This document shows, piece after piece, positions 5,571-28,472 of a DNA stretch of 64,000 nt. The stretch's first letter is position 1; each line of letters starts with the position of its first letter. A program made the translations under genes and the position numbers. Source of the DNA: a phage; NCBI GenBank assembly GCA_036611895.1, contig GCA_036611895.1_4766.1, one strand, 5' to 3'. Under the pieces are notes generated by a model. That model was not told where the DNA came from. It did not search any database and saw only the letters and a list, made by a program, of their open reading frames with translations.

Positions 5571-5603
5571 TAAAATCTCCAGTAAAAAACCCTCCGTAGA
5601 GGG

Positions 5604-6059
5604 TTAGATGTAAGGGGTTAAATCTGGGGGAGTATAGTCTTTCCCTTTCATAACTTTCTTATTCTCATTGAAGACAGGTTCCCCATCTTCAAACTTAGAA
5701 TAGTTTGAGCGATTGACTTCAGCCAATGCTCCAGGGACATTCATCCCAAGGAAAGTACCGACGCCAGTTGCTGTAACAATCTGGTCTGCCAGTGAATCCA
5801 GCAGGTTGGTACTGGCGTCAATGCGATAAGCATCGTCATTACGTTTCATATGGTTTGCCAGATTTGTAATGGCATCTTGTGCACGTTGTAGCAATTCTGC
5901 ATCGTAGCTACCATTTGGATAAATGGTCTGAAGCATTTCTTCTACTTCTTCCAGATGACAACCAATCTGGGTACTAATGTTCTTACTCGTCGGATTCGGT
6001 ACGGCTTTTAGAAACCATTGCCGTGTGTTTTCCAGCGTACAAACGGATGAACTTGTCAT
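5604..6059 (-). CDS. hypothetical protein (151 aa); start may be downstream of annotated ATG
   Basis: ORF track; 5' end overlaps upstream HTH gene by about 77 nt in another frame. Acidic helical motif HLEEVEEMLQ; function not assignable. Confidence 0.4.
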   Translation of the reverse strand: MTSSSVCTLENTRQWFLKAVPNPTSKNISTQIGCHLEEVEEMLQTIYPNGSYDAELLQRAQDAITNLANHMKRNDDAYRIDASTNLLDSLADQIVTATGVGTFLGMNVPGALAEVNRSNYSKFEDGEPVFNENKKVMKGKDYTPPDLTPYI

Positions 6060-6378
6060 GCTCAGTCTCTTGGTTAAGGTGGCGATTGTTATATGCCTCC
6101 AGAATCAAGTCTCTTACATATGAGCGAATCTCATAAGCAGGACCAACTTGTTCTGACAGCCAATCAGCCACATGGGTTGGTAAAGGACGTAATACGTTTT
6201 CCATGAACGTCCGACGTGTGTCGGCTGGTTCAATGTTTAGAGAACGCAATCGCAAAGTAACTGTAGTTGGGTGAACCCCCAACGTCTTAGCGATAGTTGC
6301 GAGGGACAGACCAACAGCATTCATACGAATGATGTCTTCATCGGTTGCTTTGCGATTACTTCTGAATACTTTAGACAT
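5983..6378 (-). CDS. helix-turn-helix DNA-binding protein
   Basis: 131 aa. HTH-like segment LSLATIAKTLGVHPTTVTLRL; RBS GAGGAAA about 9 nt upstream of ATG. Confidence 0.55.
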   Translation of the reverse strand: MSKVFRSNRKATDEDIIRMNAVGLSLATIAKTLGVHPTTVTLRLRSLNIEPADTRRTFMENVLRPLPTHVADWLSEQVGPAYEIRSYVRDLILEAYNNRHLNQETEHDKFIRLYAGKHTAMVSKSRTESDE

Positions 6379-6396
6379 AGCTTATTTCCTCTTCAA

Positions 6397-6430
6397 AGAT
6401 AGCCTCACTTTATTATAAGTGAGGCTATTT
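6397..6430. promoter_or_regulatory. Near-perfect palindrome (10-12 bp arms, 6-nt centre) immediately upstream of the HTH gene RBS; candidate operator or processing hairpin
   Basis: agcctcactt-tattat-aagtgaggct read directly in sequence; arms extend with flanking a/t pairs. Confidence 0.4.
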
Positions 6431-6604
6431 GAACAGGCTAGGACTGGTTCTTATACCATTCCCCGAACTCTTTCATTGCATCTTCTAAGGACAAGCCTTC
6501 AAAGAATTGACCAAAGTGTCCGTTGTACGTCACACAAATCCTTGTAACGGTTTACTTTAGGGGTGTGATTACTTCCCGTATAACCACCTTATCAATGCTA
6601 ATCA

Positions 6605-8665
6605 TTACTTAGTAGCCTTGATCAGCTTGGTAGCTAACTTAGTTTCTTCTTCAGTCAGTCCCATTGCAGTGAATGACTTCTTAGCATGACGCTTATAGTC
6701 TTGCAGAGCATGGCCTTTCTGATAGTCAGAGTACGTCGTATCGTTAAGGATGCTACGCAGATTATCAGCGTGTTTACCAGACGGAGCTACTTTAGTGGCA
6801 GCAGCAGAACGTGTAGGTTTAACTGTCTTATCCTGCTTAACAGCTTTAGGTTTACCAATAGGTTTAGCTGTATAGGTAGCACGTACATCAGCAATCTTAG
6901 CTACTACATCACTACCTACACCGAATGCACCCCAAGGCTTTCTGGCTTTGGAACGCAGTTCTACCAGAAGGTCAGCAGCAGCTAACTTATCTTCCGGTGT
7001 TGTTGCATTAAGGAACTCTTTGACTAGTTCCTGGATTTGTTCTTTCACAGTAGGAGCCTTCTTAATAGCAGGTTTAAGGTCAGTAGCTTTCACTGGTTCA
7101 GCAGCTACAGCTTCATTCAGCGACTCTTCCATGTTCAGCGCTTCTTTGCTAGCGACTGTACGGAATTGTTCTACAGAACCAGATGTGAGATTAGTGTATT
7201 TGAGGTTAGTACCACGATGACCACCAACCATAATAAGTGTGGTAGGTGAACTATGGTTCCCAACGATGGCATCATTAAGCAGCTTCTTACCTACCTCTGT
7301 CTTAGACAGATAGATACCGCTGTTAACGTTAAGACGTTCCTCTTCCGGTAGTTCAGCAATAATATGATATGCAGATACACGCATCTTATTGGTGCTGTAC
7401 TCAGGAACAGCAAATACATCTTCAGGTGCTACTTTACCAAGGATAGTTACGTCACCACCGAAGCTACGGATATAGCTCATGGATGCTACGTGCAGACCGT
7501 TAGAACAATCCTGACGACGGTCAGGGTCTACCAGGTCTTCACGTACCTGAACTTTACAGCCTACCCATTGACGAATTCTACCTGAGTGACAGTCAACGAA
7601 TACACGTCTACCATTTTCTGCGTCTTTATACTTCAGACGCTTCAGGAACAGGATTGAACCATCATCAGCAATAGGTAGCTCAGCAGTTTCCATGAATTTC
7701 ATCAGGTCTTCTACTGAGTGCAGACGGTCTTTAATAACCGGAGCCAGACGCTCAAGGAACTTAGTAAAGCCCTTGTAGTCTTTCAGCTGGGCAGACTGAC
7801 GTAGATGACGATGCAGGTTTTCAACTCCGGGGATAACCCCATTATTGGTAACAGCAACAACCACTTCGTCTTCCTTCACTTCGGTGTGAAAGTTAGCATC
7901 ATCAGTACTGATAGCACCTAATGCAGCCAGCTTCTCAGAAGCAGCAGCCAGCTTATCCTGGTTCGTAGTTTTAGCTATTTCTACATAAGGAGATGGCGTT
8001 ACATCACGACTGGTAAATACAATGTGTACTCCTTTGATGTGCTGAGCTTGTTTAGCAAACTCACTCATTTCATCATCGGATACTGCACGAATTGCAATAG
8101 GCCATTCTCGTGCAAGGATACGATTGGTATGGTCATAACCCCAACTCAGTACGTCATTGATAAAACGAACCAGTGCAGGATGGTTATGGTCCTTATCCCA
8201 GCCAGTAACCCACATCAGGTTTTCACGTCTGTCGTAGAAACCATCAGATACAGTTACTTCTGGTTCATTAGCCTGTACAGCCAGGAAGGTATCCATAGCT
8301 TTAGATACTAACGTCTTAGTAGGATTGCCCAGCTTAATATCTGAGACGATATGTGCAGGAGGAACACCTGTACCATCCTGGAAGAACTCTTTAAGTTTAG
8401 CTTTAGCTACCTTGAAGAAACGGACGAATCCGTTGGTGTTCTTCTCTGCTTCTAGATACTCAGTACGTAATGCTACTTCTGGCGCAATGTTTACTTCTAC
8501 CAGGTCTTTGGTGGTTCCCAGACCTTTGGTTTGTGCTTCAGATACAATGCGAGCAACCCGTGGGTCGTTCTGAGGATATACAATTGTGGAGCCATCAGGC
8601 TTCCACAGTGTGAGGTTACGACTGTCAACTGCCAGTGCGATGATAGAAATCAGTTCGATTTTCAT
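6605..8665 (-). CDS. rIIB: rIIB-like protein (assigned by synteny with upstream rIIA-like gene)
   Basis: 686 aa ORF directly downstream of the GHKL-ATPase gene with 5-nt spacing. No diagnostic motif; call is synteny only. Confidence 0.45.
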   Translation of the reverse strand: MKIELISIIALAVDSRNLTLWKPDGSTIVYPQNDPRVARIVSEAQTKGLGTTKDLVEVNIAPEVALRTEYLEAEKNTNGFVRFFKVAKAKLKEFFQDGTGVPPAHIVSDIKLGNPTKTLVSKAMDTFLAVQANEPEVTVSDGFYDRRENLMWVTGWDKDHNHPALVRFINDVLSWGYDHTNRILAREWPIAIRAVSDDEMSEFAKQAQHIKGVHIVFTSRDVTPSPYVEIAKTTNQDKLAAASEKLAALGAISTDDANFHTEVKEDEVVVAVTNNGVIPGVENLHRHLRQSAQLKDYKGFTKFLERLAPVIKDRLHSVEDLMKFMETAELPIADDGSILFLKRLKYKDAENGRRVFVDCHSGRIRQWVGCKVQVREDLVDPDRRQDCSNGLHVASMSYIRSFGGDVTILGKVAPEDVFAVPEYSTNKMRVSAYHIIAELPEEERLNVNSGIYLSKTEVGKKLLNDAIVGNHSSPTTLIMVGGHRGTNLKYTNLTSGSVEQFRTVASKEALNMEESLNEAVAAEPVKATDLKPAIKKAPTVKEQIQELVKEFLNATTPEDKLAAADLLVELRSKARKPWGAFGVGSDVVAKIADVRATYTAKPIGKPKAVKQDKTVKPTRSAAATKVAPSGKHADNLRSILNDTTYSDYQKGHALQDYKRHAKKSFTAMGLTEEETKLATKLIKATK

Positions 8666-8669
8666 CAGA

Positions 8670-11237
8670 TTAGTTACCTTTCAGTTTATTTAGACGATTA
8701 CGGTAGATGGACTTAAACCCAGGAATATCCTCTGGATTATTCTTAAGGTGTTTGACCAAACTACCTAAGTCCAGCGTCTGTAGAATGTCATTCTTATTCC
8801 AGTTATAACTGAATAATCCTTTGTAACCTTTCAGTATTTCAAAGTACTTATGGTTACGGGGGTTAACCATCATTGTATACGGTTCTAGGTCATCTACTGA
8901 TTTAATACAGCCCATTTCAACAAGTTTTTCTTTGTTGTTATGTGGTCGATTTCGTAGAAAGTCATATGCCCATTCATACTCTGGTTTAAAAATCAGATTC
9001 TGTAATGGTTTGAAGGTTAGGCCCAGTATGTCTAGAATTTCCCAATACTCTCTGTCATCCAGTCCTACGTATTCCAGAATACCAATACGGTGTTCAGTAA
9101 CATATTTCTTGAAGCCTTTACTGGTAATAACTGGCATCAGCTCCATAAAGCGAACATCATCAATGTGGATAGCACCACGTCGTTTAGCCTTGTTAGCTTC
9201 GATTTGATTTCGGCAGACAACTGTCTCTGCTTTCATCTCATCGGATAACTCATACCATTTCCACATGGTTCCAATTCGAGCAGTTACTGGACTACCAGTA
9301 CCAACCTGATTAGCCAGTACATAGTACTTAGGCTGTTCTACCTCAACGAAACCATATTTCTCATGGAAGCTCGGGTCAGCAAAACCTTTGTCAATGTAAG
9401 GTTTAGAATCCCAATCACCACTTTTATTCCGTACAGAAGTAGTACCAAGAACTGCATTCAATGAAATCAGAGCATTGGTTTTACCTCCTGCTTTGGTTTT
9501 ATTGGCAGCTATTGTCTTAGCACGTTTCTCAGCAGCTATCTTAGCCTGTTCTCTACGGTAGTTAGTTGGTTTGTCCCACTCATTATATTGAGTAAGGTCA
9601 ATTACCCGATAACCCATAGCAGTGAACTTAGCTACAGCCTCTTCTGCTGCACCCTTCTTAGGACCAACGACGTGAACAAAAGCTGTACGCTCCAGATCAC
9701 CTCGGTTGTATTCAGGGAAGTATGAGAAAGAGTCTGCACAATCAGATAAACGTCGGGTAACTACAACGTTCTTGGTAGTGAATATGCCGATACCCTGATG
9801 GGAGGTATGGTACATCTTAAAGTAGTCTGTAAGTTTACCTTTCACCAAGTCTACAGAATTACCCTGGTTCATTATGTAACCAGACCACTTAATACCAGAG
9901 ATTTTTAAAGCAGCAATCTGAGGTAAGTGCAGATGGCGATATACTAATTCATGGAATGGGGAGTATGTACTTTCTTTACGAGTATCCTTAAGAGCACGCA
10001 TAGCCTTACCATACAGTTTTTTAAGACCTGCATATTCAGGACGAGCTAACAATGCTTTATTGGATAGATTACGCCAATGCTTGATGTGATGCTTACGCTG
10101 CTTAGCCCACAAACTAGAGGACATATAGCGTTGAACAATTGGGTCTGTAACAGCAAGCAAGAAAGACGGATAGGTCCAGAAGCAGGTAGAGGATTTAGAA
10201 GCATATTCTTCAACCTGCTTAATAGCATCAGGAATTTTAGCCTTAATCTCTTTCTCCATACGGTCTACTAAATCTACGCATAGAGTAGTAATACCATCAT
10301 CAGTTAACTTCTGGTTAGACAGCGTTTCCCGACTAGGAGCAATAGCTAGAGTATCCGGTGCAGCCTGAACTACTAAATTGTCAGCACCAATAATATTCAT
10401 AAAGTTGAGGATAAGACCTACAGCTTCTTCACTAGCCGGGCTGGATACTATTGGGTACATTACGTTACCGTAGCGAACGTATATGTTACTACTCCCCATA
10501 TAGCCCTGATACCATTTATCAGACATATCATATGAACCAGGTTCAAATGACATACCTAACGTATCCAGTAAAGTGTAGTCGCCTTGCTGAATACTAATAC
10601 CTGTTTCTGTTTTAACGAGTTTAGTAGTACTTAGTTCAGCCTTAATCTCTCCATTGAACACAATAGACTTGATGTAATGTACAAATGTATTTACATCATG
10701 CTTACCCAGTTGGAATTTAACTTCCAGACCAGATTCCTCAGTGGGAATACCAGTAATAATAGGAACAATACCCGGTTTACCGTCATTCTCAATTGCAGCC
10801 TTAGCTACGTTATATACAGACATCTTTCCCTGGTTCCATGAAGTAACCTGGAAGCTATCTGTATAAGCGAATGGGGATTTACATCCCAGACCAAAGCCAC
10901 CAGTAACACTACTGTTGGCCTTCTTAGTAGATGCACCATAGACACCATAAATGGAACCAATGAGTTCATCCGGGATTCCGTTACCGTAGTCACGGAAGGT
11001 AATAAAGTTGTCTTTATCAATGGTAATACGAATAGGGGTATCAGTCTTACCTGCCTCAATATGAGCATCCCAACTGTTACAGATAGTCTCACGGACTACT
11101 GCCAGAGTAGGATTGTTATACAAGGAAGTACTTAATACATGGAAGAATGCCGGGTCATCAGAGATGCCAAAGGCAATTGTTTCTTTACCACCCAGTGTCG
11201 CTGAGGTAGCTACTTCATTGGTATCTGCAACTAACAT
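8670..11237 (-). CDS. rIIA: rIIA-like protein with N-terminal GHKL (histidine kinase-like) ATPase domain
   Basis: 855 aa. N-terminal ETICNSWDAH...FRDYGNGIP...GGFGLGCKS matches GHKL ATPase N, G1 and G2 boxes. Confidence 0.65.
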   Translation of the reverse strand: MLVADTNEVATSATLGGKETIAFGISDDPAFFHVLSTSLYNNPTLAVVRETICNSWDAHIEAGKTDTPIRITIDKDNFITFRDYGNGIPDELIGSIYGVYGASTKKANSSVTGGFGLGCKSPFAYTDSFQVTSWNQGKMSVYNVAKAAIENDGKPGIVPIITGIPTEESGLEVKFQLGKHDVNTFVHYIKSIVFNGEIKAELSTTKLVKTETGISIQQGDYTLLDTLGMSFEPGSYDMSDKWYQGYMGSSNIYVRYGNVMYPIVSSPASEEAVGLILNFMNIIGADNLVVQAAPDTLAIAPSRETLSNQKLTDDGITTLCVDLVDRMEKEIKAKIPDAIKQVEEYASKSSTCFWTYPSFLLAVTDPIVQRYMSSSLWAKQRKHHIKHWRNLSNKALLARPEYAGLKKLYGKAMRALKDTRKESTYSPFHELVYRHLHLPQIAALKISGIKWSGYIMNQGNSVDLVKGKLTDYFKMYHTSHQGIGIFTTKNVVVTRRLSDCADSFSYFPEYNRGDLERTAFVHVVGPKKGAAEEAVAKFTAMGYRVIDLTQYNEWDKPTNYRREQAKIAAEKRAKTIAANKTKAGGKTNALISLNAVLGTTSVRNKSGDWDSKPYIDKGFADPSFHEKYGFVEVEQPKYYVLANQVGTGSPVTARIGTMWKWYELSDEMKAETVVCRNQIEANKAKRRGAIHIDDVRFMELMPVITSKGFKKYVTEHRIGILEYVGLDDREYWEILDILGLTFKPLQNLIFKPEYEWAYDFLRNRPHNNKEKLVEMGCIKSVDDLEPYTMMVNPRNHKYFEILKGYKGLFSYNWNKNDILQTLDLGSLVKHLKNNPEDIPGFKSIYRNRLNKLKGN

Positions 11238-12276: not shown

Positions 12277-12513
12277 TTACTTACTATTTTCTTCAATGAA
12301 GCGTCTCATACGTTCTTTTGCTTCATCATGCTCTTTAATAGCTACATAGTCTCGTGCATAGTAATATGCACACCATAAGCCAATATCACATGCAGAGAAG
12401 CGAGCCGCTACGAAGAACATCTCTTCCAGGCTCTGAGCATTGTGTAATGAAAATACAAATTCCAGAACCAGGATGATACTTACAATCATTGCTTGGATAG
12501 CTAGTTTTTTCAT
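12277..12513 (-). CDS. small membrane protein (78 aa)
   Basis: Hydrophobic segment LAIQAMIVSIILVLEFVFSL; 4-nt overlap with ThyX-like gene. Confidence 0.45.
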   Translation of the reverse strand: MKKLAIQAMIVSIILVLEFVFSLHNAQSLEEMFFVAARFSACDIGLWCAYYYARDYVAIKEHDEAKERMRRFIEENSK

Positions 12514-13454
12514 TCAGTAATAGTCTCACCTGGGATTAGCTTACGGAATTGGATAAAGTGAAGCAGGTTACCTGAGTACAGATTCCCCTCTTTATCCATG
12601 GAGGTAACACCTTGTTCCCAGGTAACTGGGTTCATATTATTCACGTACTTCTCACCAAGGTTCATAGGGGTAGCCTGATGTTCTGTTGGGGAAGCATGAA
12701 TAGGTTGGTTTTCCACTAATTTAGCAAATAAGCCAAGGTCTTCTTCGATAGTAGAAGGTCGTCCTTCAAAATTGTTATAGGAAGCACGAGCACAACGTGC
12801 AGCACTTACTTTAAGAAGTAGTCCATGCACTTCTGCATCACTTGGTTCATCGCGTGTAATTCGATTACGTTTGCAGAAATTGTAAGCCCCAACACGGTCA
12901 ATATGAGCAATGTACGGCATATGCCATTGTCCATATGGTAATGCTCTTGGTGTACTTTCTTCATGTGCCTTACGCATTGCTTGAGCCAGTTCACGAATTT
13001 CTGGTTGAGCATCTTTGTGGTCACGCAATCCATAGAAATTAGCCCAGCTTGTTGAAGTTACCACTACACGAATATGTGTGAATGGTTCCAGAATACGGTT
13101 AACAATCTGCTTATGTACTTGCCCACGACGTAGCTGTTCAGCATACACAGCAGCAGCAGATGCAGCGTTATCCCAGATAAATTTGGCATCCTCAATCTCC
13201 ATAGGAGTGAGTTCTTCCTCTGCCTGCATACCTTTCTGGTTCTTGCCCCAGTGACTTGGCATCACTGGTTCATTACGAACCTGTTCGATGAACTTAGAGG
13301 TAGGAATAGCACGACTGCTTGAAGCATTGCGGTTAAATACACGGTGGGTCATAAACTCACTGTGAATGAATCGGGGATAAACCAATTCAAAGGTTGTGAT
13401 ACGAGTTCCTGTTTCTGGATGAACGGAATCTGCAATTACTGATGCCTTAATCAT
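12510..13454 (-). CDS. ThyX-like flavin-dependent thymidylate synthase family protein (diverged signature)
   Basis: 314 aa. EFMTHRVFNRNASSSRA resembles ThyX RHR...S.RY motif but reads THR/SRA; downstream YGLRDHKDAQPEIRE resembles ThyX HAQ.EIR region. Confidence 0.5.
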   Translation of the reverse strand: MIKASVIADSVHPETGTRITTFELVYPRFIHSEFMTHRVFNRNASSSRAIPTSKFIEQVRNEPVMPSHWGKNQKGMQAEEELTPMEIEDAKFIWDNAASAAAVYAEQLRRGQVHKQIVNRILEPFTHIRVVVTSTSWANFYGLRDHKDAQPEIRELAQAMRKAHEESTPRALPYGQWHMPYIAHIDRVGAYNFCKRNRITRDEPSDAEVHGLLLKVSAARCARASYNNFEGRPSTIEEDLGLFAKLVENQPIHASPTEHQATPMNLGEKYVNNMNPVTWEQGVTSMDKEGNLYSGNLLHFIQFRKLIPGETITE

Positions 13455-14394: not shown

Positions 14395-14673
14395 TTACTC
14401 TGCTTTACTGCCACCATTGGTTTGAACAACAGTTACATTTGTAACCTGGTTCTGACCTTTGTTGGACAGTGCCCAAATCAGTGCTACTACCCAGAATACC
14501 AGTGACCAGCCTAATACGATATTAAGCACACCAATGCCCCACTTAGAGGCATGGCCTCGTGCAAAAGCAATGATAGTAGGGATAAGGTATACAGCTAATA
14601 CAAATAACAGAACAAGGATTGCTGCTAAAGATTCCATGATGGTTCCTATGTGGGGTTGAGTTAGTTTCTTCAC
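14395..14673 (-). CDS. superinfection immunity (Imm-like) inner-membrane protein
   Basis: 92 aa, two TM helices; YLIPTIIAFARGH...NIVLGWSLVFWVVALIWAL matches the motif of the superinfection immunity protein family as I recall it. Confidence 0.55.
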   Translation of the reverse strand: MKKLTQPHIGTIMESLAAILVLLFVLAVYLIPTIIAFARGHASKWGIGVLNIVLGWSLVFWVVALIWALSNKGQNQVTNVTVVQTNGGSKAE

Positions 14674-14710
14674 AAATAGCCCAACAGTGCTGGGCTATTT
14701 AGGCAGCTAC

Positions 14711-14920
14711 TTACTCAGCATCTTTGCTTGCAGGAGCAAGGGCTTTCTTCAGGTAATTACGTACTGAACGATAGGTTTCTTTGGTATCCAAAGTACCATC
14801 ATTTACAAACGAAATACGCGCGCAATCAGACTGCGGAATCTGTTGCACTGCAATCACATTTGCAGCATTAATGGTTAAACGTACATCTGAGGTTGCATGG
14901 GTTACTTGAAATACTGACAT
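14711..14920 (-). CDS. hypothetical protein (69 aa)
   Basis: ORF track. Confidence 0.35.
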   Translation of the reverse strand: MSVFQVTHATSDVRLTINAANVIAVQQIPQSDCARISFVNDGTLDTKETYRSVRNYLKKALAPASKDAE

Positions 14921-14929
14921 GAGTTTTCC

Positions 14930-15436
14930 TTATTTGCTGCTTCTTGCAGCTACTGGTTTGTTTTCCTGGTTCTGATACTTACCATTGTAATTAGCAGGTT
15001 CTTGAACCAGATGAAATAATACTTGAGCTATCCCAGCACCAGCCGGGATATGCAATTTCTTACGACCATGATAGACCAATTCAAGGGTGAGATACCCTTT
15101 CCATCCTGGTTCTATTACGGTATTGAACACTGATAATGCACGTCTTGCCCATGTAGACTTATCGTGAACTATAGCTACGCAGGACGGGGACATGTTGAAC
15201 TTCTCAATTGCTGAAGCCAATGTGAATTTACCGAAATGGCGTGATACTTGATTTCCATCAACAACCTTCACCATTGGAATCAATCCAAATAAGCGATAGA
15301 AGGTAATATCTTGTTTGATACGAATATCATAACCAGCTTCACCCAATCCATAGCTTACACCGTGTTCAGATATCTTACGGTCTGGGACATCCAGCAACTG
15401 GGATGAACGATATAGAGAATTACCATTAACAACCAT
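14930..15436 (-). CDS. dcd: dCTP deaminase / dUTPase-fold enzyme
   Basis: 168 aa. GLGEAGYDIR, AIVHDKSTWARRALSVFNTVIEPGWKGYLTLEL and IPAGAGIAQ resemble dCTP deaminase/dUTPase motifs. Confidence 0.7.
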   Translation of the reverse strand: MVVNGNSLYRSSQLLDVPDRKISEHGVSYGLGEAGYDIRIKQDITFYRLFGLIPMVKVVDGNQVSRHFGKFTLASAIEKFNMSPSCVAIVHDKSTWARRALSVFNTVIEPGWKGYLTLELVYHGRKKLHIPAGAGIAQVLFHLVQEPANYNGKYQNQENKPVAARSSK

Positions 15437-16611
15437 TATTTCATTCCTTTAGGGATATGAACTACCTCCCCAAAAGGTACGGTAGCATTGGGATTATTCA
15501 GAACACACCAGATGATTGGAATATCAAATGGCAATTCTTCCATTGGACGAACATACATATCGGAGAATATGATTGCAGCGGTTGGCTTATTCTTAATAAT
15601 CCAATCTCGTACAGGCACAAGGCTTGTACCACCACGACCTGTAATCTTAATCTCTTCAAAAGTATCTTCTTCAGTGATGTCTATCTCTTCTTGAATAATA
15701 TCGTCGAAAGTAATTAAGGACATCTTCTTAGGGTTGAACTGGCTTTTAACGTAGGCAACCTCTGAGTTAAAACGCAGAGAGTCAGCACTACTAATAGAAC
15801 CAGATACATCCTCAAAGTAGGCTAAGTGACGTAGGCGTCCTTCATCATCTTCCAGGGAAGGTAGATAAATATCAGTGTAACGACGGTTAGGTCTGGCCCA
15901 CGTATAGTGTGTGTCATCAATGTCGGTAAAGAAGTTCATGAGAACTTCCTGCCAAGGAACCACTGGTTTAAGGAATTGGGTAATGACCTCTTCCATACGA
16001 CCAGCACCCTTACCGGGCATCTGTCCACCAGCCATCTTCTGGCTCTGCATTGCACGTACTACGTTGTTGACTACAGCACCCTGGGACTGTCCCGAAGTGG
16101 GGGATTTCATGTCGCCAGCAAGACCTGCTCCAGCACCCCCTGACGGCTTCTGCCTTTTCTGAGGGTTCTTCATCAGGTCATCGTAGATGTCTTCTTCGAC
16201 CCATCCTTTATATTGCGGGTCTTTGCAAATGCCTTCATCAATGCCAGTGAACTTGTAGCCATCTTCTTCTAACTGAAGGTTAATGAAGTGGTCACAAGCC
16301 TGGTTCCATACTTCTGGGTCACGGCTTCCACGACGGATGTCATGTAGATATGCTACATGCCATAGTTCATGCATTAATACTGTTTCTCTTGCATCTGGAC
16401 ACATCCAGATAAAGAAATCAGGATTGAAATGGAGTTCTATCCCATCAGTACATGCAGTGGGACAATCCTCACGTTTCCATGAGAATTTAAGACTACACAG
16501 TAATGAACCAAAGAACGCAGCAGACTTGCCCAGAAAGGCTTGGGCCTGAATACGGTCATACTCACGCATGAGTTGTTCATCACTAAGTGTGTGCTGAGGA
16601 AATTGGTTCAT
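15436..16611 (-). CDS. vWA-like domain protein with HExxH metallopeptidase-like motif (partner of AAA+ ATPase)
   Basis: 391 aa. HELWH motif in N-terminal half; C-terminal vWA-like segment; 8-nt from upstream AAA+ gene. Confidence 0.55.
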   Translation of the reverse strand: MNQFPQHTLSDEQLMREYDRIQAQAFLGKSAAFFGSLLCSLKFSWKREDCPTACTDGIELHFNPDFFIWMCPDARETVLMHELWHVAYLHDIRRGSRDPEVWNQACDHFINLQLEEDGYKFTGIDEGICKDPQYKGWVEEDIYDDLMKNPQKRQKPSGGAGAGLAGDMKSPTSGQSQGAVVNNVVRAMQSQKMAGGQMPGKGAGRMEEVITQFLKPVVPWQEVLMNFFTDIDDTHYTWARPNRRYTDIYLPSLEDDEGRLRHLAYFEDVSGSISSADSLRFNSEVAYVKSQFNPKKMSLITFDDIIQEEIDITEEDTFEEIKITGRGGTSLVPVRDWIIKNKPTAAIIFSDMYVRPMEELPFDIPIIWCVLNNPNATVPFGEVVHIPKGMK

Positions 16612-16618
16612 GTTGTGA

Positions 16619-17671
16619 TTATCCGTGAATGTAACGAGAGATGTTAGCAGCAGCCTTACGCCATTCAGGGGTAGCCTGAAGTTCTGGTAATGCTCTGCCT
16701 ACTGTACGGAAGTACAGAATCTTATGGGTGAACGTTTTAAAGCGTTCAATGTACTGAAGAACTTCAGCGAAATTCTCTTCAGTAGTTTTGTTAGCCAGAT
16801 GGTTAACGGTAGCCCAGCACAGGTTGTTATCTTCCGGTAATGCACAGCCCAGTGGGTCTTTGACTACCTTCTCAATCGTAATGATACGATTATATACCTG
16901 AGTAAACTGAACAAATTCTGTAGCTTTACCGGCAGTAACGTGTCCTGCATAGTAGATAGAATCTTCATCAGGCAGAGCACCTTCTGGTAGGTTCTTGAGG
17001 TCTTTATTAACAAAGTCCCAGGTACGTGGACAACAGAAAGTTTTGTTCTTATGTGCTGGGTCGAAGTCATGCAGGTAACCAGGGTTAGCATGTAAGAATG
17101 CAACCAGACGTTCATCCCATTGTTGGGGAATCATTACATCTTCAACAAAGATGTCGAAGTTAAGTTCCATCTCAAAGTGAACCACACGAGACTGCATTGC
17201 AGTACCCAGAGGATTAACAATGGCACGGTCAGTAGCTTTGTTACCAGCACAGACAATCATCACATTAGGATGAAGTTTTTTCTGACCAGTCATACGGTCT
17301 AGAATTAGTTTGTATGCAGCAGCTACCACTTCTTTCTTAGCTGAGTTGAACTCATCAAGGAACAGGAGCCAGCCATTATAACCTTCGGGTACTTCGTCTC
17401 CCTCAATGGGAAATAAGTCAGCGAATGGTATAAACTCTGCACGGTCACCATTACGGAATGGCAAACCAGACAGGTCTTCCGGGGCAGAAGTAGACAGACG
17501 ATGGTCTATCAGTTTCATACCAAATTCTTCTGCAATAGAACGAATGATTGCAGATTTACCCATGCCTGGTGATGAAGTTAGGAATGGTACGTTACCTGCT
17601 TTCAAAGCACGGATAATAAAGTTACGAGCTTGACGTGAATTACATACGGTCAAGGAGTCAATGCTTGCCAT
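16619..17671 (-). CDS. AAA+ ATPase (MoxR-like)
   Basis: 350 aa. Walker A SPGMGKS, Walker B LLFLDEFN. Confidence 0.8.
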   Translation of the reverse strand: MASIDSLTVCNSRQARNFIIRALKAGNVPFLTSSPGMGKSAIIRSIAEEFGMKLIDHRLSTSAPEDLSGLPFRNGDRAEFIPFADLFPIEGDEVPEGYNGWLLFLDEFNSAKKEVVAAAYKLILDRMTGQKKLHPNVMIVCAGNKATDRAIVNPLGTAMQSRVVHFEMELNFDIFVEDVMIPQQWDERLVAFLHANPGYLHDFDPAHKNKTFCCPRTWDFVNKDLKNLPEGALPDEDSIYYAGHVTAGKATEFVQFTQVYNRIITIEKVVKDPLGCALPEDNNLCWATVNHLANKTTEENFAEVLQYIERFKTFTHKILYFRTVGRALPELQATPEWRKAAANISRYIHG

Positions 17672-17705
17672 TTACTTACTCTCCTAAAGCTAATGGAATT
17701 ACTAA

Positions 17706-18032
17706 TTAAGATTTAATACATGGGTATGCTGTATCAATCGCCAACAGAACCATGTCTGATGGCACTTTTATTGCATTAACCTTTCGGTCATACAGAATAA
17801 TAGTGGCTACCTTGTCAAAGACATTTCCTAACTTCAAATGCTCTGGTACGCAGTTTTTTCCTGCTTCTACGCCCATAGTAACCATGCCCATGAAATAACC
17901 CTGGTTCACAAAGTTTGCATTATTGGCTTTGTAGTCGGCAGCAGCATCCAACAAGGTTTCACGGCTAGATGCTTGGGCATTGAATGACAGAACAGATAAA
18001 GCTACTACAGCAACAGCAATTAAAGTTTTCAT
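17706..18032 (-). CDS. secreted (signal-peptide) protein
   Basis: 108 aa. N-terminus MKTLIAVAVVALSVLSFNAQA has n/h/c signal-peptide organisation with AQA-S cleavage-like site. Confidence 0.5.
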   Translation of the reverse strand: MKTLIAVAVVALSVLSFNAQASSRETLLDAAADYKANNANFVNQGYFMGMVTMGVEAGKNCVPEHLKLGNVFDKVATIILYDRKVNAIKVPSDMVLLAIDTAYPCIKS

Positions 18033-18218
18033 TTAGTTACCTTTTAATTGGTTTAGTTGAAGTACACCGATAGGGGTTAATGACCACCCAAGACCAGCAT
18101 TGAACTGTACTAAGCCCAGCTTCTTAAGAGACTGTGCGGTTTTGTTATTACGGTTGCTGGTGGCAGAACCACCTTGAACCATACGAAGGAATATTGCTTG
18201 GGACTGGGTTAATTTCAC
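18033..18218 (-). CDS. hypothetical protein (61 aa)
   Basis: ORF track; abuts neighbours. Confidence 0.35.
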   Translation of the reverse strand: MKLTQSQAIFLRMVQGGSATSNRNNKTAQSLKKLGLVQFNAGLGWSLTPIGVLQLNQLKGN

Positions 18219-18475
18219 TCATCTTCTCCTTCATCTGGGAGTGGTGATAAATCTACACCTAAATGCTCAAAGCGTTTTTCTAAGACAGCAATCCTCTTTT
18301 GATAAAATGACAGCAGTTCAGGAAGTATTCTTGTACGAGCTTGTGGTCCTAAATCCGTACCATTGAATGATACTTTCACCATATGTGGTGACTTCTTCAA
18401 ACTAGCTAATTGCTGTCGGTTGTCGTTGTATTCTTCATACAGTTTTTCAACCAAACGTAGATTATGAATATTCAT
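18215..18475 (-). CDS. hypothetical protein (86 aa)
   Basis: ORF track; 4-nt overlaps both sides. Confidence 0.4.
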   Translation of the reverse strand: MNIHNLRLVEKLYEEYNDNRQQLASLKKSPHMVKVSFNGTDLGPQARTRILPELLSFYQKRIAVLEKRFEHLGVDLSPLPDEGEDE

Positions 18476-18660
18476 TTCTTCTCCGGTACGAACTGCATTA
18501 CACAGTTTTGATTACGAGGGATATTAAGTTCACATTCATGTTTGAGGGTTTGTGTTACAGAGTTTGGAGTAGAACCAAAGTAGGTATTAGATATAGCTAC
18601 AAATCCTGCACCTATTAAACCACCTAGCAAGAATGAGAAGAATGCAATCTCTTTATACAT
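18472..18660 (-). CDS. small membrane protein (start adjusted to internal ATG with GGAG RBS)
   Basis: ORF track 18472..18693; internal Met MYKEIAFFSFLLGGLIGAGFVAI preceded by GGAGCCAGGAA. Confidence 0.4.
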   Translation of the reverse strand: MYKEIAFFSFLLGGLIGAGFVAISNTYFGSTPNSVTQTLKHECELNIPRNQNCVMQFVPEKK

Positions 18661-18721
18661 TTCCTGGCTCCAGATGTAGAAAACCCCAGTCAATGCTGGG
18701 GTTTATCTATCAGTTTATACT

Positions 18722-18982
18722 TTATAGACCGTGTGGTCGGCATAGACTACCTGAACCAAAGGAACGATGTCCAAGTCGGCCCAGGATTAGGTTGCTTACT
18801 TCAGCAGCAGCACGACTGAATGCTTTAAAGTCAAAGACTACGATACCAAAGAGTGGGGCTGCGATAGCAGCTACCATGATTGGCGTCAGGTCAACCAGTG
18901 ACATACCCAAGATTAAGTGAGCAGCGTAGGCAATAATACCCATTCCAACACCACAACCATATCCAATAGCAATTTTACGCAT
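18722..18982 (-). CDS. small membrane protein (86 aa, two hydrophobic segments)
   Basis: GMGIIAYAAHLILGM and IMVAAIAAPLFGIVVF hydrophobic stretches. Confidence 0.45.
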   Translation of the reverse strand: MRKIAIGYGCGVGMGIIAYAAHLILGMSLVDLTPIMVAAIAAPLFGIVVFDFKAFSRAAAEVSNLILGRLGHRSFGSGSLCRPHGL

Positions 18983-19049
18983 AGTTACCTTCTTAGTTAG
19001 TAGATTGATACATATTCATATAACAGACAAACAATAGTCAAAAAAAGAC

Positions 19050-19078
19050 CTCCCTTCAATAGGGAGGTCAAGCTTGGG
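19050..19078 (-). terminator. intrinsic terminator after decoration-protein gene
   Basis: gacctccc-ttcaata-gggaggtc hairpin preceded on plus strand by a7 (U-run after hairpin on minus strand). Confidence 0.5.
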
Positions 19079-19119
19079 AGTTTTATTTCAGGGTTTATAA
19101 CCCCAAACAAAGGATACCC

Positions 19120-19953
19120 TTATTCTGCAACAGTAACAGGGATGGTTACATCGACAGTACCATTGGTAACTACTACAGAAGTAGCATCACCAGCAGCAAC
19201 TGGTTTAACCGTCAGTACGTTACCAGCAATGGTAGCTGTAGCACGACCGGATTCTGGAGCAGTCTTGATAGACAAAGTACCGACAGATGAGCCAACAGGC
19301 ATAGCAACAATCGTTACGTTCTTACCATCAGTAGTATCAGCAGCAACAGACAGAGCCAGTGAAGCTGGAGTAGCTACCAATGAGCTTGCTTCGTAGTAGC
19401 CTACAGCCAGCAGCGACTCATCTTCTACAGTGGTTCCATTAGCATCGGTAACAATCACTTTGTAAGTACCAGCAGAAGCAGCTGTTACGCCATTAAGAGA
19501 CAATGTTGCAGTAGCAGCGGATTCATTCTCACCTGAATCAATATCAGCGAATGCTGCACCAGCAGTATTAGTTTTGAATTGCCATTTATAAGTAAATGGT
19601 GCTTTACCACCTGCTACATCAACATGCCAGTTAATATCCTCACCTTCGATAGCAGAGACTACACGAGGCAGTTTGGTAGCAATAGTCAGTCGTGGAGTAG
19701 CCTTCATCTCAATAGAGATAGCCTGCATATCCACGATGTTGTTAGGCCAGAAGCCTTCTTCAGCAGGGTTTTTGGCAGAGCGTTTATACAGCAGATCACG
19801 AACACCATGAAAGATAACTAAGCTATCTGGATAAGTGGCATCTGGATGTACAAAGGTTCCTACTTCTACGGAACCACCTGGGATAGAGCCATTGGCATCC
19901 AGTACAGTTGCAACATTAGTGGTTTTGTTAAAACCTACTTTTAAAGTTGGCAT
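19120..19953 (-). CDS. capsid decoration protein-like, Ig-like (Big-type) domains
   Basis: Start moved to internal ATG with AGGAAA RBS (MPTLKVGF...). Ig-like repeats (TYKVIVTDANGTT, VTNGTVDVTIPVTV); position just downstream of RNAP II genes matches N4 gp17 synteny as recalled. Confidence 0.55.
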   Translation of the reverse strand: MPTLKVGFNKTTNVATVLDANGSIPGGSVEVGTFVHPDATYPDSLVIFHGVRDLLYKRSAKNPAEEGFWPNNIVDMQAISIEMKATPRLTIATKLPRVVSAIEGEDINWHVDVAGGKAPFTYKWQFKTNTAGAAFADIDSGENESAATATLSLNGVTAASAGTYKVIVTDANGTTVEDESLLAVGYYEASSLVATPASLALSVAADTTDGKNVTIVAMPVGSSVGTLSIKTAPESGRATATIAGNVLTVKPVAAGDATSVVVTNGTVDVTIPVTVAE

Positions 19954-20027
19954 ATCAATTTCCTCATAAGTAAATAGCAGAGTTAGTATACATGACAGAT
20001 AAAAAAATAAACCCTCCGTTAAGAGGG

Positions 20028-20210
20028 TTAGTTGTTTACACAGTAGATAGCAAAAGCTATCCATCCTGCTATTACAAAGCAGCCTAGTGAGTATGCTCCA
20101 TAGTAGTAATAAGCAAACTTAGACTTGTGGGCATGGACTATCGTAGACAGAACCAGTACAGATAAAACTATCAGTATTAGCTGAAAGATTACTTCAAAAG
20201 GGATTAGCAT
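20028..20210 (-). CDS. small membrane protein (start adjusted to internal ATG with GGAGGT RBS)
   Basis: ORF track 20028..20243; MLIPFEVIFQLILIVLSVLVL hydrophobic helix. Confidence 0.4.
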   Translation of the reverse strand: MLIPFEVIFQLILIVLSVLVLSTIVHAHKSKFAYYYYGAYSLGCFVIAGWIAFAIYCVNN

Positions 20211-20267: not shown

Positions 20268-21485
20268 TTAACTTAATGCATAGTCTGTTTCAAGAATGTC
20301 CTGCCAGAGGCTGTCATCCAGCTTACCAGCAGAGAACTCTTGTCCCAGTACCTGAGACAGGATGAAGCCTAGCAGGTCACTCTTAGCAATGTCAGACAGA
20401 ATCTGATTGTACTGACGACGTAGGTCATTACCGTAGTTAGGATGGCAACGGAAGCAGTCATGTACAGTCATTACAGGGAATGGTTTCTTAGGCATAGTGT
20501 CAATCATATCTGCTACTACCTGATGGTCTACATAAGCAATAGTGCATGGGTCAAGATAATCCAGGATTGATACGGATAGGAAGCCAGATTTCTCATAATG
20601 GCTCCACAGCTCCTGTACTTTCTCCAGATTGCCTGCAATCTCCCCATATTCTGATGGACCATCCTCACAGAGTTCTCGCACAGCTTCCACTAAGTCACGG
20701 TCGAAGTTACAACGACGCAGCATCTCACGCACCACCATCCCATCAATAGAGTGGGTGATGTTAGCAGAGAGCATACGAGTCTTCTCTTCTGTGCCCTGAA
20801 CCATACGAGTGATGTCGAATGGCTTACCTAAGAAGTTAACAGTCTGTACTTCAGGAATCATGACCTTAATGACAGCGTGGAAGTTGTCAGGCAGTACCCA
20901 TACGTAACGGTTGGCATCTGGATTACCACATTGCAGTAAGAACTTGTTAAGTGCCCAAGGACCACTAGCAACAGTTTCCATTACATTCTCAAAAGTCTTG
21001 AGACGAATACCTTCACCGAATACTTCTTTAGGCTTGGCTTCTGAGCCGTAGAATGCAGTCATAACTGCCTGCTTAGTGTCACTACGTTTAATACGAGATG
21101 CTTCACCAAGGATGTCCAGCATCTTGTGATAGATAACTGTATAGGCATCACGACGTAATGGCTTACCATTCTCTCCCATGTAGTTAACTACGTTACACAG
21201 TTCAGCAGCAGAACGGTCACCAGTCAGGCAAGCCAGTAACTGCAATCCGGATGATGTAGCATCCAGGGCTACGGCATAACCAATAGGCTTACCTGCTTTC
21301 ATATCTTTCCATGCATTTATACCTGCAAAGAACAGAGCAGAATCTTCAGCTTCATCTACCAGATTAAGCAGGTTAGCTTCGTTCTCATCGAACCAGGAGA
21401 TACGCTCATCCCATGTCTTTTTATCTAAGCCATAGTTATTAGCAATATCTACTTTCAGGTATTCACGAGCGGTTAACAGTTGCAT
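20268..21485 (-). CDS. phage RNA polymerase II, catalytic (C-terminal-type) subunit, T7-like single-subunit RNAP fold
   Basis: 405 aa. ALDATSSGLQ resembles T7 motif A (DGSCSGIQ); RSDTKQAVMTAFYGS resembles motif B with K-to-Y spacing of 8; MTVHDCF resembles motif C. RBS AAGGAA upstream. Confidence 0.85.
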   Translation of the reverse strand: MQLLTAREYLKVDIANNYGLDKKTWDERISWFDENEANLLNLVDEAEDSALFFAGINAWKDMKAGKPIGYAVALDATSSGLQLLACLTGDRSAAELCNVVNYMGENGKPLRRDAYTVIYHKMLDILGEASRIKRSDTKQAVMTAFYGSEAKPKEVFGEGIRLKTFENVMETVASGPWALNKFLLQCGNPDANRYVWVLPDNFHAVIKVMIPEVQTVNFLGKPFDITRMVQGTEEKTRMLSANITHSIDGMVVREMLRRCNFDRDLVEAVRELCEDGPSEYGEIAGNLEKVQELWSHYEKSGFLSVSILDYLDPCTIAYVDHQVVADMIDTMPKKPFPVMTVHDCFRCHPNYGNDLRRQYNQILSDIAKSDLLGFILSQVLGQEFSAGKLDDSLWQDILETDYALS

Positions 21486-21539: not shown

Positions 21540-21656
21540 TTATTTACGTTTACGTTTACGTTTGGCCTCTGCCTCACGTTTGAGAGCTTCGTTAATACGC
21601 TTTAACACTAGTTCTCTGTGAGCATAGAAGTCAGCTACTGCACGATGATTAATCAT
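21540..21656 (-). CDS. candidate 38-aa highly basic micro-protein (C-terminal KRKRKRK)
   Basis: Hand translation MINHRAVADFYAHRELVLKRINEALKREAEAKRKRKRK; ATG overlaps stop of upstream RNAP II small-subunit gene (ATGATTAA). Below ORF-track size cutoff. Confidence 0.3.
   Translation of the reverse strand: MINHRAVADFYAHRELVLKRINEALKREAEAKRKRKRK
21543..21563. repeat. (ACGTTT)3 perfect tandem hexamer repeat
   Basis: tttacgtttacgtttacgttt read directly; encodes the KRKRKR tail of the micro-ORF on the minus strand. Confidence 0.8.
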
Positions 21657-22467
21657 TGTTTACTAGCTCCTTATCAGCGAACTCCAGTACAGCTTTGTTG
21701 TAGCTGGTTCCCTGATAGTTGATGTGGTAGCCGCAGGCATATGTACGCCCACGTTTGTCATACTTGTGAGCCAGTGAGAAGTTATTACCTTCTTTGGTTA
21801 CTAACTCCATTACTTCCTTAGCTGTACGGCTGTACTTCTCAAAGGCTTTAACACGTTTCTCATAGTCCTGACGGGTTTCACCCTCTTTGGGTTTATCCAT
21901 GTTAGGACGAGAGTCTTTTACATAGTTAGCAACGTCCCAGTTAATACAGAGACGTTGGTTATTCATACGGTTGATGTGGTCAAGACAGACATCCATCTCA
22001 TGATGGTTCTTCTTGAGGATGATGCTACCTCTGCTTTCATAGTAACCAGTATCACGATTACACAGAACAGGCTTAGGAGCACTTACGATAGGCAATGGAT
22101 ACTGGAATGCTTCCAGTTCCATCTGAACATCTTCACTAATCTCATAGATAACACCGAACTTGTCGATGGTAGGGTCATAGTTGAAGCAGTCATTCTCTGC
22201 CATCTTATATAGGCAGTCAGCGATGTACTGAGCATCATCTGAGTGACTCATGAGAGAGCCAATCATAGTTTGGATGTCAGCACGTTTATGTAAGGCAATC
22301 TGCACCATTGCATCAATGAGCAGCTTATAATCAATTTCTAAATAGGCAGCGAATGCCTTAAAGTCAATTTCTTCGGAGTCCTCGAATTCCTTCCTCATGC
22401 GAGGGAGTAATTGATTCTTGTTGAAAAGGATTTCAAGTCGCTTCTGATGTTCAATAGATGAGTACAT
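21649..22467 (-). CDS. phage RNA polymerase II, N-terminal-type subunit
   Basis: 272 aa. KYDKRGRTYACGYHINYQG resembles the T7 RNAP DxRGR region; directly upstream of the catalytic subunit. Confidence 0.7.
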   Translation of the reverse strand: MYSSIEHQKRLEILFNKNQLLPRMRKEFEDSEEIDFKAFAAYLEIDYKLLIDAMVQIALHKRADIQTMIGSLMSHSDDAQYIADCLYKMAENDCFNYDPTIDKFGVIYEISEDVQMELEAFQYPLPIVSAPKPVLCNRDTGYYESRGSIILKKNHHEMDVCLDHINRMNNQRLCINWDVANYVKDSRPNMDKPKEGETRQDYEKRVKAFEKYSRTAKEVMELVTKEGNNFSLAHKYDKRGRTYACGYHINYQGTSYNKAVLEFADKELVNND

Positions 22468-25647: not shown

Positions 25648-25830
25648 TTAATGACTTACGCATGATTTAGTACTCCACATAAAGTTAAAAGGTTTACTGT
25701 TACGTACAATTCTTACAACCATTTGATAGCCATTGAGTTGTACAACACCATAGTGTCGTTTCTGTACACCAGTGTGATACCTACGAAAGATACACTCTTC
25801 AATGGCATCTTCTATGTTAGTGAATATCAC
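25648..25830 (-). CDS. hypothetical protein (60 aa)
   Basis: ORF track. Confidence 0.35.
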   Translation of the reverse strand: MIFTNIEDAIEECIFRRYHTGVQKRHYGVVQLNGYQMVVRIVRNSKPFNFMWSTKSCVSH

Positions 25831-26045
25831 TGGTTCCTCTTTGCAAACTCTTCGGCTTCCTTAGCCCAGAGTTGCTTACGATCTTCTTTAGCTACGATGG
25901 AAGCAAACAGGCATTTAACGAATACAACTGGTAACTTACAAATAAGTACCAGCTTAGTAATTACCCACTTGGCTCCATTGAGAATGTAACCACGTAGGTG
26001 ATAAAGCACATAACAGAGTATTACAAACGCAATGAAGTCCAACAT
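25827..26045 (-). CDS. small membrane protein (72 aa)
   Basis: MLDFIAFVILCYVLYHL hydrophobic N-terminus. Confidence 0.4.
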   Translation of the reverse strand: MLDFIAFVILCYVLYHLRGYILNGAKWVITKLVLICKLPVVFVKCLFASIVAKEDRKQLWAKEAEEFAKRNQ

Positions 26046-28168: not shown

Positions 28169-28343
28169 AACGTGTAAGGTGGGGTAGGGTAGTGGCTACA
28201 CCGTCAACATACCGGGGGGGCTAGTTGAGTGTAAGGGTGTAGCCCCAGCCACACCACTATGGCTGTACATAGCTATCACAATTTTGACATGCAAAAATAT
28301 TATAGGCACTATCTCTATAAGCAGATAACTTTGAGGTACTAAC

Positions 28344-28472
28344 ATGAAAGATGGATGGGGTAACTACAATCCTACAGACCCTGAGAACTGGCTTCACTTT
28401 ATTGCATGGGCTTGCGCTGTAGGATTCATAAGTATTGTGCTCTTATCACTGGTTCTATCTTATCTGTAAATA
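28344..28472 (+). CDS. candidate 42-aa single-pass membrane micro-protein on the opposite strand
   Basis: MKDGWGNYNPTDPENWLHFIAWACAVGFISIVLLSLVLSYL; GAGGT 6 nt upstream of ATG; TTGACA hexamer about 55 nt upstream; hairpin follows stop. Confidence 0.3.

Follow-up and report, generated by a model that had tools for sequence, protein, structure and literature searches.

Superinfection exclusion in T4 is mediated by Imm, the founding member of the Imm_superinfect family. Spackle, another T4 protein, neutralises a peptidoglycan hydrolase that arrives from outside, the gp5 lysozyme on the T4 tail (PMC7677548). In bacteria, the periplasmic dimer Rap1a blocks the active site of Ssp1, a type VI secretion system (T6SS) peptidoglycan DL-endopeptidase; a Cys78-Cys122 disulfide staples its fold, and immunity proteins of the Rap1a/Tai4 type are specific inhibitors of their cognate effectors (PMC3852654). 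N4-like phages have no characterised exclusion system, and finding one has been deemed important for understanding how N4 lysis inhibition is entered (PMC12642591). We analysed 64,000 nucleotides of phage DNA (contig GCA_036611895.1_4766.1 of GenBank assembly GCA_036611895.1), referred to as a whole as the window, in which a preliminary description had flagged five small genes between positions 14395 and 20210 as a set of envelope-targeted proteins, an Imm-like protein among them. The 14-21 kb stretch shares 92-94% DNA identity with Escherichia phages PD38, Bp4 and their relatives, and on its sequence the source phage is placed in Gamaleyavirus, as a G7C/Bp4-like coliphage within the N4-like family Schitoviridae.

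In itself, such a cluster is ordinary for a phage. The specific, testable leads are a phage-borne homologue of T6SS immunity proteins with deep alleles, gp17.3, and an invariant peptide in a small membrane protein, gp17.1. The most informative member, gp17.3, suggests that the cell wall is shielded from Tae4-type amidases, and not that phage injection is modulated. A T6SS-immunity homologue is unexpected in a lytic phage, and it may protect the wall of the infected cell. Features of the window lie on the minus strand unless marked otherwise.

Identification of gp17.3 as a Rap1a/Tai4 homologue

The gp17.3-like gene (17706-18032) encodes a 108-aa, predicted periplasmic protein with the Rap1a/'Tai4a' T6SS-immunity fold. 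The signal peptide ascribed to it in the preliminary description was borne out by an N-terminal hydrophobic segment followed by an A19-Q20-A21 site before Ser. The N terminus reads MKTLIAVAVVALSVLSFNAQA and continues with SS; its elements, namely MK, a hydrophobic core and A-Q-A before SS, are kept in all alleles, and cleavage by signal peptidase I is predicted after A21.

A direct search of the gp17.3 sequence against PDB sequences gave no match, and a hit to PmoD, obtained with a profile of close homologues, was rejected as a chance match. The link to Rap1a and Tai4 emerged only when distant relatives were included in the profile, and from the comparison of folds. Homologues found in an exhaustive HMMER search form only 16 clusters at 50% identity, and 12 of the 15 extended family members matched the Pfam Rap1a family PF18602 (best E-value 2.5e-18). 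When the family profile was compared with the PDB, only Tai4 and Rap1a chains were found (E 0.03-0.12), with the internal Cys and the C-terminal C...FPC motif in alignment. The AlphaFold2 (AF2) model of gp17.3 has five helices after the signal peptide, with a predicted local distance difference test (pLDDT) score of 82.8, and its top seven Foldseek matches were all Tai4 or Rap1a. Cys61 and Cys105 are invariant in all phage alleles and bacterial relatives; they align with the cysteines of Rap1a and Tai4, and their spacing of 44 equals that of Cys78 and Cys122 in Rap1a, so that a disulfide bond is predicted.

Some orthologues are already named 'Tai4' or 'Rap1a' in GenBank and UniProt records, and Imm and Rap1a domains are both labels that databases already hold. 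In the literature, neither these genes nor any Tai4/Rap1a protein encoded by a lytic phage was found to have been studied functionally.

Alleles and variation of gp17.3

In all Gamaleyavirus genomes examined and in two divergent N4-like metagenomic contigs, gp17.3 lies directly upstream of the gp24-like ATPase gene. In a more distant group (contigs L006, L009 and L017), a gp17.3 relative is found directly downstream of a gene for a different AAA protein of about 250 aa. The gene is absent from N4 and from Klebsiella phage KP8. Across 57 phage records, two allele classes were recognised: class A, with 80-96% identity to the window protein (30 records), and class B, with 33-36% identity (about 23 records), which includes PD38 and Bp4, the closest relatives overall. 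Phages phi G17, Moonfish and Jgk1 carry intermediates between the classes. In the same comparisons the genes that flank gp17.3 are 90-99% identical. Therefore, the locus has been exchanged between deeply diverged alleles.

We took as contact-equivalent the positions aligned with the twelve Ssp1-contacting residues of Rap1a. Within class A (101 distinct sequences) these positions scored 0.79 bits of variability versus 0.39 bits at the other mature positions (permutation p 0.02), in a test that uses a remote alignment and phylogenetically non-independent sequences and whose p value is modest. The hot spots at residues 64-66 and 70-71, just past Cys61, align with Ser81-Thr87, the active-site plug of Rap1a, and helix 44-53, which corresponds to the dimer interface of Rap1a, hardly varies. 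This is in keeping with an inhibitor that has a diversifying binding surface, as supporting evidence and not as proof. Together with the deep allele classes, the variation at the predicted contact surface would fit an inhibitor that tracks diverse targets.

An invariant peptide in gp17.1

The preliminary description listed three small transmembrane (TM) proteins, and all three withstood analysis: by Kyte-Doolittle hydropathy with a 19-residue window, which was used for all TM calls, the proteins encoded at 18472-18660, 18722-18982 and 20028-20210 have one, two and two TM segments, respectively. The first is the 62-aa gp17.1-like protein, in which hydropathy indicates a single TM segment. Its last 18 residues, CELNIPRNQNCVMQFVPE (C-E-L-N-I-P-R-N-Q-N-C-V-M-Q-F-V-P-E), are invariant in 16 diverse members, which are 42-54% identical overall and vary in the TM helix and the linker. 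Synonymous codon changes occur inside the motif; therefore, the constraint acts on the peptide. In the AF2 model the invariant tail is of low confidence (pLDDT about 55), and in KP8-type members positive charges follow the TM segment. The family comprises 75 homologue clusters, and the longer contigs that carry it are all about 70-76 kb, the size of N4-like genomes. The conservation of the tail suggests a peptide that is tethered to the membrane and has a very conserved target.

Imm and superinfection exclusion

The Imm gene (G7C gp27.1-like) is inserted between the gp27 and gp28 homologues. The preliminary description had read it as 14395-14673 and as Imm-like with two TM segments; the two segments and the family were both recovered, by hydropathy and by a match to Pfam Imm_superinfect. 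The most likely start is the ATG at 14637, which follows an AGGA ribosome-binding site and gives an 80-aa predicted inner-membrane protein (14395-14637); it is preferred because the GTG at 14673 falls in the 3' arm of a hairpin. The hydrophobic segments reach peak hydropathy values of 2.9 and 2.3 (hydropathy only). The protein matches PF14373 over profile positions 1-42 of 42 with 61.2 bits (cutoff 27.9; E 8.7e-17) and PHROG 1039, 'immunity to superinfection', at 4e-31. Membership of the Imm_superinfect family is established by these profile matches, and an exclusion function would be expected by analogy with T4 Imm. The hairpin core is common to 674 phage records, with T-even-like, Jersey-like and Acinetobacter phages among them. 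The gene is missing from N4, KP8, phi G17 and Moonfish, and it is dispensable across the genus.

The idea that the whole set mediates superinfection exclusion is only partly supported: an Imm_superinfect member is present. The set is not a single module, but is split into separate terminator-bounded units that assort independently. For gp17.3, a role in exclusion or in the modulation of injection found no support: the protein belongs to the Rap1a/Tai4a T6SS-immunity family, the known targets of which are Tae4-type amidases delivered by bacteria.

Gene content, transcription units and assortment

The five flagged open reading frames (ORFs) are real: all are on the minus strand and conserved in related phages, and each has a full-length PHROG family match. 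Pairwise dN/dS (the ratio of nonsynonymous to synonymous substitution rates) against relatives was computed for every small ORF and was mostly 0.02-0.3, with one pair at 0.61. Therefore, the small ORFs are genuine genes under purifying selection, and chance ORFs were ruled out by these values together with conservation across genera. Genes for membrane or secreted proteins make up four of the seven between gp16 and gp24 (hypergeometric p about 0.004) and 6 of 16 between 12.3 and 20.2 kb (p about 0.003), with 8 of about 61 on the whole early and middle arm; the p values are post hoc. The set does exceed a lone imm gene, as had been claimed. Scans of all small proteins with NCBIfam and PADLOC gave no meaningful match.

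Terminator-like hairpins were found after gp16 (20260-20237), gp16.1 (20029-20010), Imm (14320-14298) and gp30.1 (12272-12251, a strong one), and an intrinsic-terminator-like hairpin follows gp17 (19069-19047); an additional hairpin lies 3' of 18722-18982. Hairpin and T-run elements thus bracket gp16.1 and gp17 as single genes. A scan of the 9.6-kb region found 17 terminator-like sites versus 6.3 expected. The genes for gp17.1, an 86-aa soluble protein, gp17.2 and gp17.3 follow one another with an overlap or without a gap and continue into gp24. Because the terminators split the flagged genes, these form several units and no single operon.

The genes also vary separately among phages. Moonfish and phi G17 keep gp17.1, gp17.3 and gp16.1 and have no Imm, Imm is disrupted in PGN829.1, and G7C is without 18722-18982. 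In N4, no homologues of gp16.1, gp17.1-17.3, 18722-18982 or Imm were found. The separate terminator-bounded units and the independent gain and loss therefore mark the region as a hot spot of independent envelope factors, not one system.

The slot between gp17 and gp24 encodes three to four envelope-directed proteins in three other N4-like lineages, namely N4, KP8 and contig L007; in contig L011 only one of nine passed the hydropathy threshold. Because the N4, KP8 and L007 slots are rich in envelope proteins, the slot is a recurrent home for envelope-directed accessory genes in these N4-like phages, with differing occupants. An SPFH/Band_7 lipoprotein occurs in the same region both in N4 (gp20; L003 3257-4093) and in the distant N4-like contig L006 (5902-6765), which also carries a Rap1a-like gene.

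Other small proteins and gene corrections

The flagged region is bounded by the RNA polymerase II (RNAP II) subunit genes (21649-22467 and 20268-21485) and by ThyX (12510-13454), and genes for the gp24 ATPase, the von Willebrand factor A (vWA)-like protein gp25 and a dCTP deaminase are interleaved with the flagged genes. The minus strand carries the early and middle arm, with genes up to about 31 kb, and the plus strand carries the late genes. HNH homing-endonuclease inserts occur in relatives, at 5040-5516 and 9767-10348 in G7C (L004) and at 4411-7120 in Bp4 (L012), where they interrupt or separate gp24 and gp25 or separate the two RNAP II subunit genes; in the window, gp24 and gp25 are intact and have no such insert. 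Two early-region ORFs also encode hydrophobic segments, a 72-aa ORF with two (25827-26045) and a 49-aa ORF with one (28196-28345). On the plus strand, the lysis cassette (39054-40740) contains a 109-aa ORF, a DUF7940 protein (39302-39628) and the endolysin (39618-40253), which has GH108 and PG_binding_3 domains and an N-terminal hydrophobic segment resembling a signal-arrest-release (SAR) sequence. An ORF that overlaps the endolysin on its downstream side is annotated as a spanin in relatives.

Apart from Imm and gp17.3, four small proteins of the arm are genuine membrane proteins, namely gp16.1, gp17.1, gp30.1 and the two-TM protein of 86 aa. The gp16.1-like gene (20028-20210) encodes a 60-aa, two-TM inner-membrane protein that matches PHROG 12530 over its full length. 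A GGAGGT ribosome-binding site precedes its ATG at 20210, and a terminator hairpin on either side sets the gene apart as a small unit of its own. The distribution of charges suggests an N-out, loop-in topology. It is present in all Gamaleyavirus relatives examined (58-98% identity; dN/dS 0.06-0.6). With N4 gp23 and KP8 gp031 it shares 24% and 13% identity, respectively; a distant relation is possible but not established.

The next gene encodes gp17 (19120-19953), a 277-aa Hoc-like head-decoration protein with an Ig_3 domain. It is no envelope protein; its gene has terminators on both flanks and forms the upstream edge of the variable slot. The 314-aa ORF at 19120-20064 is the gp17 gene with its real start at 19953, judging from the sequence: the match to PHROG 2973 (2.6e-100) begins at residue 38 of the long ORF, and a ribosome-binding site precedes the ATG at 19953. 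The TM segment of the long ORF was rejected as a read-through artefact upstream of 19953, and 19954-20064 is probably non-coding. A 37-aa ORF at 18997-19110, for which phage nithesis has a gene of 30 aa in its annotation, is probably no gene, because the terminator hairpin of gp17 lies inside it.

The 86-aa accessory two-TM protein (18722-18982) belongs to PHROG 26763. It has a conserved basic C-terminal tail, its C-terminal half is kept across genera, and its charges suggest an N-in, C-in topology. Its occurrence is patchy, in only 12 Gamaleyavirus records and in KP8-like Klebsiella phages (about 52% identity), with dN/dS at or below 0.08. In PGN829.1 (L002 6771-7049) and St11Ph5 (L014 7771-8085) it is replaced by an N4 gp18/P22 gp17-like gene. 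The replacement protein is acidic, matches PF17420 and is annotated 'superinfection exclusion'; contig L011 has both this gene (4380-4694) and an 18722-18982 homologue.

Two proteins of the slot have no TM or signal segment. One is an acidic, soluble 86-aa protein (18215-18475), the gene for which overlaps both neighbours by 4 nt; it is accessory and absent in G7C, phi G17 and Moonfish. The other is the gp17.2-like protein (18033-18218), which is basic, soluble and 61 aa long and is conserved across genera, with 46-53% identity in KP8 and L011. Outside the flagged range, a gp30.1-like gene (12277-12513), translationally coupled to ThyX, encodes a 78-aa exported or anchored protein with an N-terminal hydrophobic segment and two Cys in its C-terminal part. 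It also occurs in two allele classes (41-42% versus 74-88% identity), which assort independently of the gp17.3 alleles.

Proposed mechanism and alternatives

The reading that we favour, and to which we would give about an even chance, is that of a recombination-prone accessory slot of independent envelope proteins, with Imm serving exclusion and gp17.3 serving immunity to T6SS amidases. From this slot in the middle-gene arm, several small proteins that act independently would reach the host envelope once a cell is infected; two of them, Imm and gp17.3, can be assigned. Imm would insert in the inner membrane as a helical hairpin and, as in the case of T4 Imm, may block the DNA entry of later-arriving phages. 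gp17.3 would be exported via Sec, its signal peptide would be cut after Ala21, and in the periplasm it would fold into a disulfide-stapled five-helix Rap1a/Tai4a bundle. By analogy with Serratia Rap1a and Agrobacterium Tai4, it would then act as a steric plug in the active site of a Tae4-type peptidoglycan DL-endopeptidase that comes in from outside. The likeliest source of such an enzyme would be a type VI effector fired by neighbouring bacteria, and the infected cell would thereby stay intact until the phage's own lysis. Considering the described Rap1a and Tai4 systems, Tae4-type amidases from neighbouring bacteria would be the simplest reading of the gp17.3 target. A more specific proposal, which we regard as tentative and clearly less probable, is that gp17.3 is an anti-T6SS shield, the two or more deep allele classes of which spread by recombination and each counter a different set of effectors, and that the gp17.1 peptide is a new host-targeting motif specific to N4-like phages.

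Several points weigh against the favoured reading. We know of no member of the Imm_superinfect family other than T4 Imm that has been studied functionally, and many homologues are annotated by similarity alone. Localisation was assigned from hydropathy, the AXA site and homology, and the topologies from hydropathy and the positive-inside rule alone. By itself gp17.3 matches PF18602 with 17.7 bits (E 0.005), below the gathering score of 27.7 bits, and the interface-variability test has the limits given above. An immunity protein usually serves against a single effector, and this analysis identified no Tae4 or Ssp1 partner from an attacker associated with E. coli. The reading also needs T6SS attack to be frequent within a short lytic cycle, which is plausible in gut or sewage. 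Furthermore, no cognate effector gene lies beside gp17.3, whose neighbours are gp17.2 and the gp24 ATPase, and no Tae4- or NlpC/P60-like domain was found in the window's small proteins or in the virion proteins that were scanned. Without an adjacent effector gene, gp17.3 is therefore an orphan immunity-type gene. The nearest bacterial Rap1a-family genes, which are Pfam-positive (L008 6001-6327; L018-L020 5001-5333), adjoin resolvase or integrase genes on apparent mobile elements, and no recognisable effector or T6SS cluster lies beside them. Therefore, orphan copies on mobile elements are not unusual.

Of the alternatives, the one that survives best, although we consider it rather unlikely, is an exclusion pair of the T4 Imm and Spackle kind, a sharpened form of the idea in the preliminary description, in which Imm blocks DNA transfer at the inner membrane, gp17.3 inhibits the peptidoglycan hydrolase with which a superinfecting phage crosses the wall and the small TM proteins assist. 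The Imm homologue is present, and gp17.3 parallels Spackle acting on the gp5 lysozyme (PMC7677548) in that it is small, periplasmic and all-helical and its family inhibits peptidoglycan hydrolases. N4 lysis inhibition is tied to superinfection, with no exclusion system known for N4-like phages (PMC12642591), and the deep allele classes would suit an arms race between phages. However, the genes for Imm and gp17.3 belong to different transcription units at a distance of 3 kb, and they assort independently: gp17.3 occurs without Imm in Moonfish and phi G17, and in PGN829.1 Imm is broken. The fold of gp17.3 is that of Rap1a/Tai4, and no Spackle entry was among the top 50-60 listed matches of either PDB search with gp17.3. 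In addition, no NlpC/P60-, Tae4-, CHAP-like or other hydrolase domain was found by Pfam or PHROG match in the virion and ejection proteins of the window, and the N4 ejection proteins have been reported to be without peptidoglycan hydrolase activity (PMC13434306). Spackle-like self-exclusion therefore has no evident target.

Somewhat less likely still is a takeover of the host envelope, in which the small proteins inhibit host enzymes (e.g., NlpC/P60 endopeptidases such as MepS), division proteins or transport proteins, with growth halted or the envelope reshaped for phage production. Tae4 enzymes belong to the papain-like/NlpC-P60 superfamily, which includes host endopeptidases. The invariance of the tethered gp17.1 peptide implies that its target is very conserved and probably a host one, and many small proteins made early or midway by phages are takeover factors. 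However, the deep divergence of gp17.3 among phages that infect the same species would not be expected if a single conserved host enzyme were the target, what Rap1a/Tai4 immunity proteins are known to inhibit, and specifically so, is their cognate effectors (PMC3852654), and no host target has direct support.

The least probable alternative is that the small proteins time lysis, modulating the phage's own holin or SAR endolysin in the manner of antiholins or endolysin inhibitors, and contribute to N4-type lysis inhibition: T4 lysis is controlled by small periplasmic or membrane proteins (rI, rIII), rIIA-like genes lie nearby and N4-like lysis inhibition involves unidentified factors (PMC12642591), but about 20 kb separate the genes, which belong to the middle arm, from the lysis cassette at 39-40.7 kb, the endolysin of the phage is a GH108 muramidase and not a Tae4-type cysteine amidase, N4, in which lysis inhibition was defined, is without gp17.3, gp17.1, gp16.1 and Imm homologues, and gp17.3 in particular was rejected as a regulator of the endolysin, which is 95.7-99.5% identical across both allele classes, whichever allele is carried, and does not co-vary.

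Significance

If gp17.3 neutralises T6SS amidases, virulent phages would join interbacterial warfare by temporarily immunising the cells that they infect. Two major forces in gut and sewage communities would then be linked, the efficacy of phage therapy in mixed populations could be affected, and the gp17.3 allele classes would be a natural panel for effector-immunity specificity. Imm, gp17.1 and the two-TM proteins form a short and testable list of candidates for exclusion, with the caveat that N4 itself is without them, and the invariant 18-residue peptide of gp17.1 could be a compact probe for a highly conserved target.

Comparison with known systems

The closest described relatives of gp17.3 are Rap1a of Serratia marcescens and Tai4 of Agrobacterium tumefaciens (PF18602; PDB IDs 3ZFI, 4BI8, 6IJE and 6IJF), which confer immunity to Ssp1/Tae amidases. 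Like these, gp17.3 has a Sec signal peptide, a mature domain of about 85 residues, five helices and a Cys pair that runs from the loop between helices 2 and 3 to the C-terminal 'FPC' with the identical spacing of 44 (PMC3852654); the equivalent of the Rap1a dimer-interface helix is also conserved. However, sequence identity is only 11-16%, and gp17.3 alone falls below the Pfam gathering score. It differs as well in that the phage is strictly lytic, in that the gene adjoins neither effector nor T6SS genes, and in that the phage-specific clade, of only about 16 clusters at 50% identity, has at least two deep allele classes.

The likeness to T4 Spackle is functional only: both are small, helical, signal-peptide-bearing proteins of a virulent phage, periplasmic or predicted to be so, and both genomes carry an Imm. 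Spackle has neither a sequence nor a fold match to gp17.3, with no entry in the top 50-60 matches listed by either PDB search, and its target is the T4 tail lysozyme, whereas no hydrolase is known on N4-like virions (PMC13434306). T4 Imm and the Imm of the window are both small, two-TM inner-membrane proteins of a virulent phage, and the T-even-like phages IME08 and dhaeg share the Imm domain with the window protein. However, only the hairpin core (residues 19-60) aligns, with about 50% identity to the T-even-like homologues, and the window gene has the gp27 and gp28 homologues of an N4-like genome as its neighbours, with an exclusion role predicted from T4 Imm.

The slot itself has its closest counterparts in N4 gp18-gp23 and Klebsiella KP8 gp027-gp034, which occupy the same position between the decoration gene gp17 and the ATPase gene gp24 and in which the products of 3-4 of 7-9 genes have TM segments or a signal, either a signal peptide or that of a lipoprotein. 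In N4 the slot holds a P22 gp17-like protein, the two-TM gp19, the SPFH lipoprotein gp20 and the two-TM gp23, none of which is homologous to the window set. In KP8 it holds three TM proteins and a signal-peptide protein, gp032, which is not Rap1a-like. KP8 and the window nevertheless have the gp17.1, gp17.2 and 86-aa two-TM families in common.

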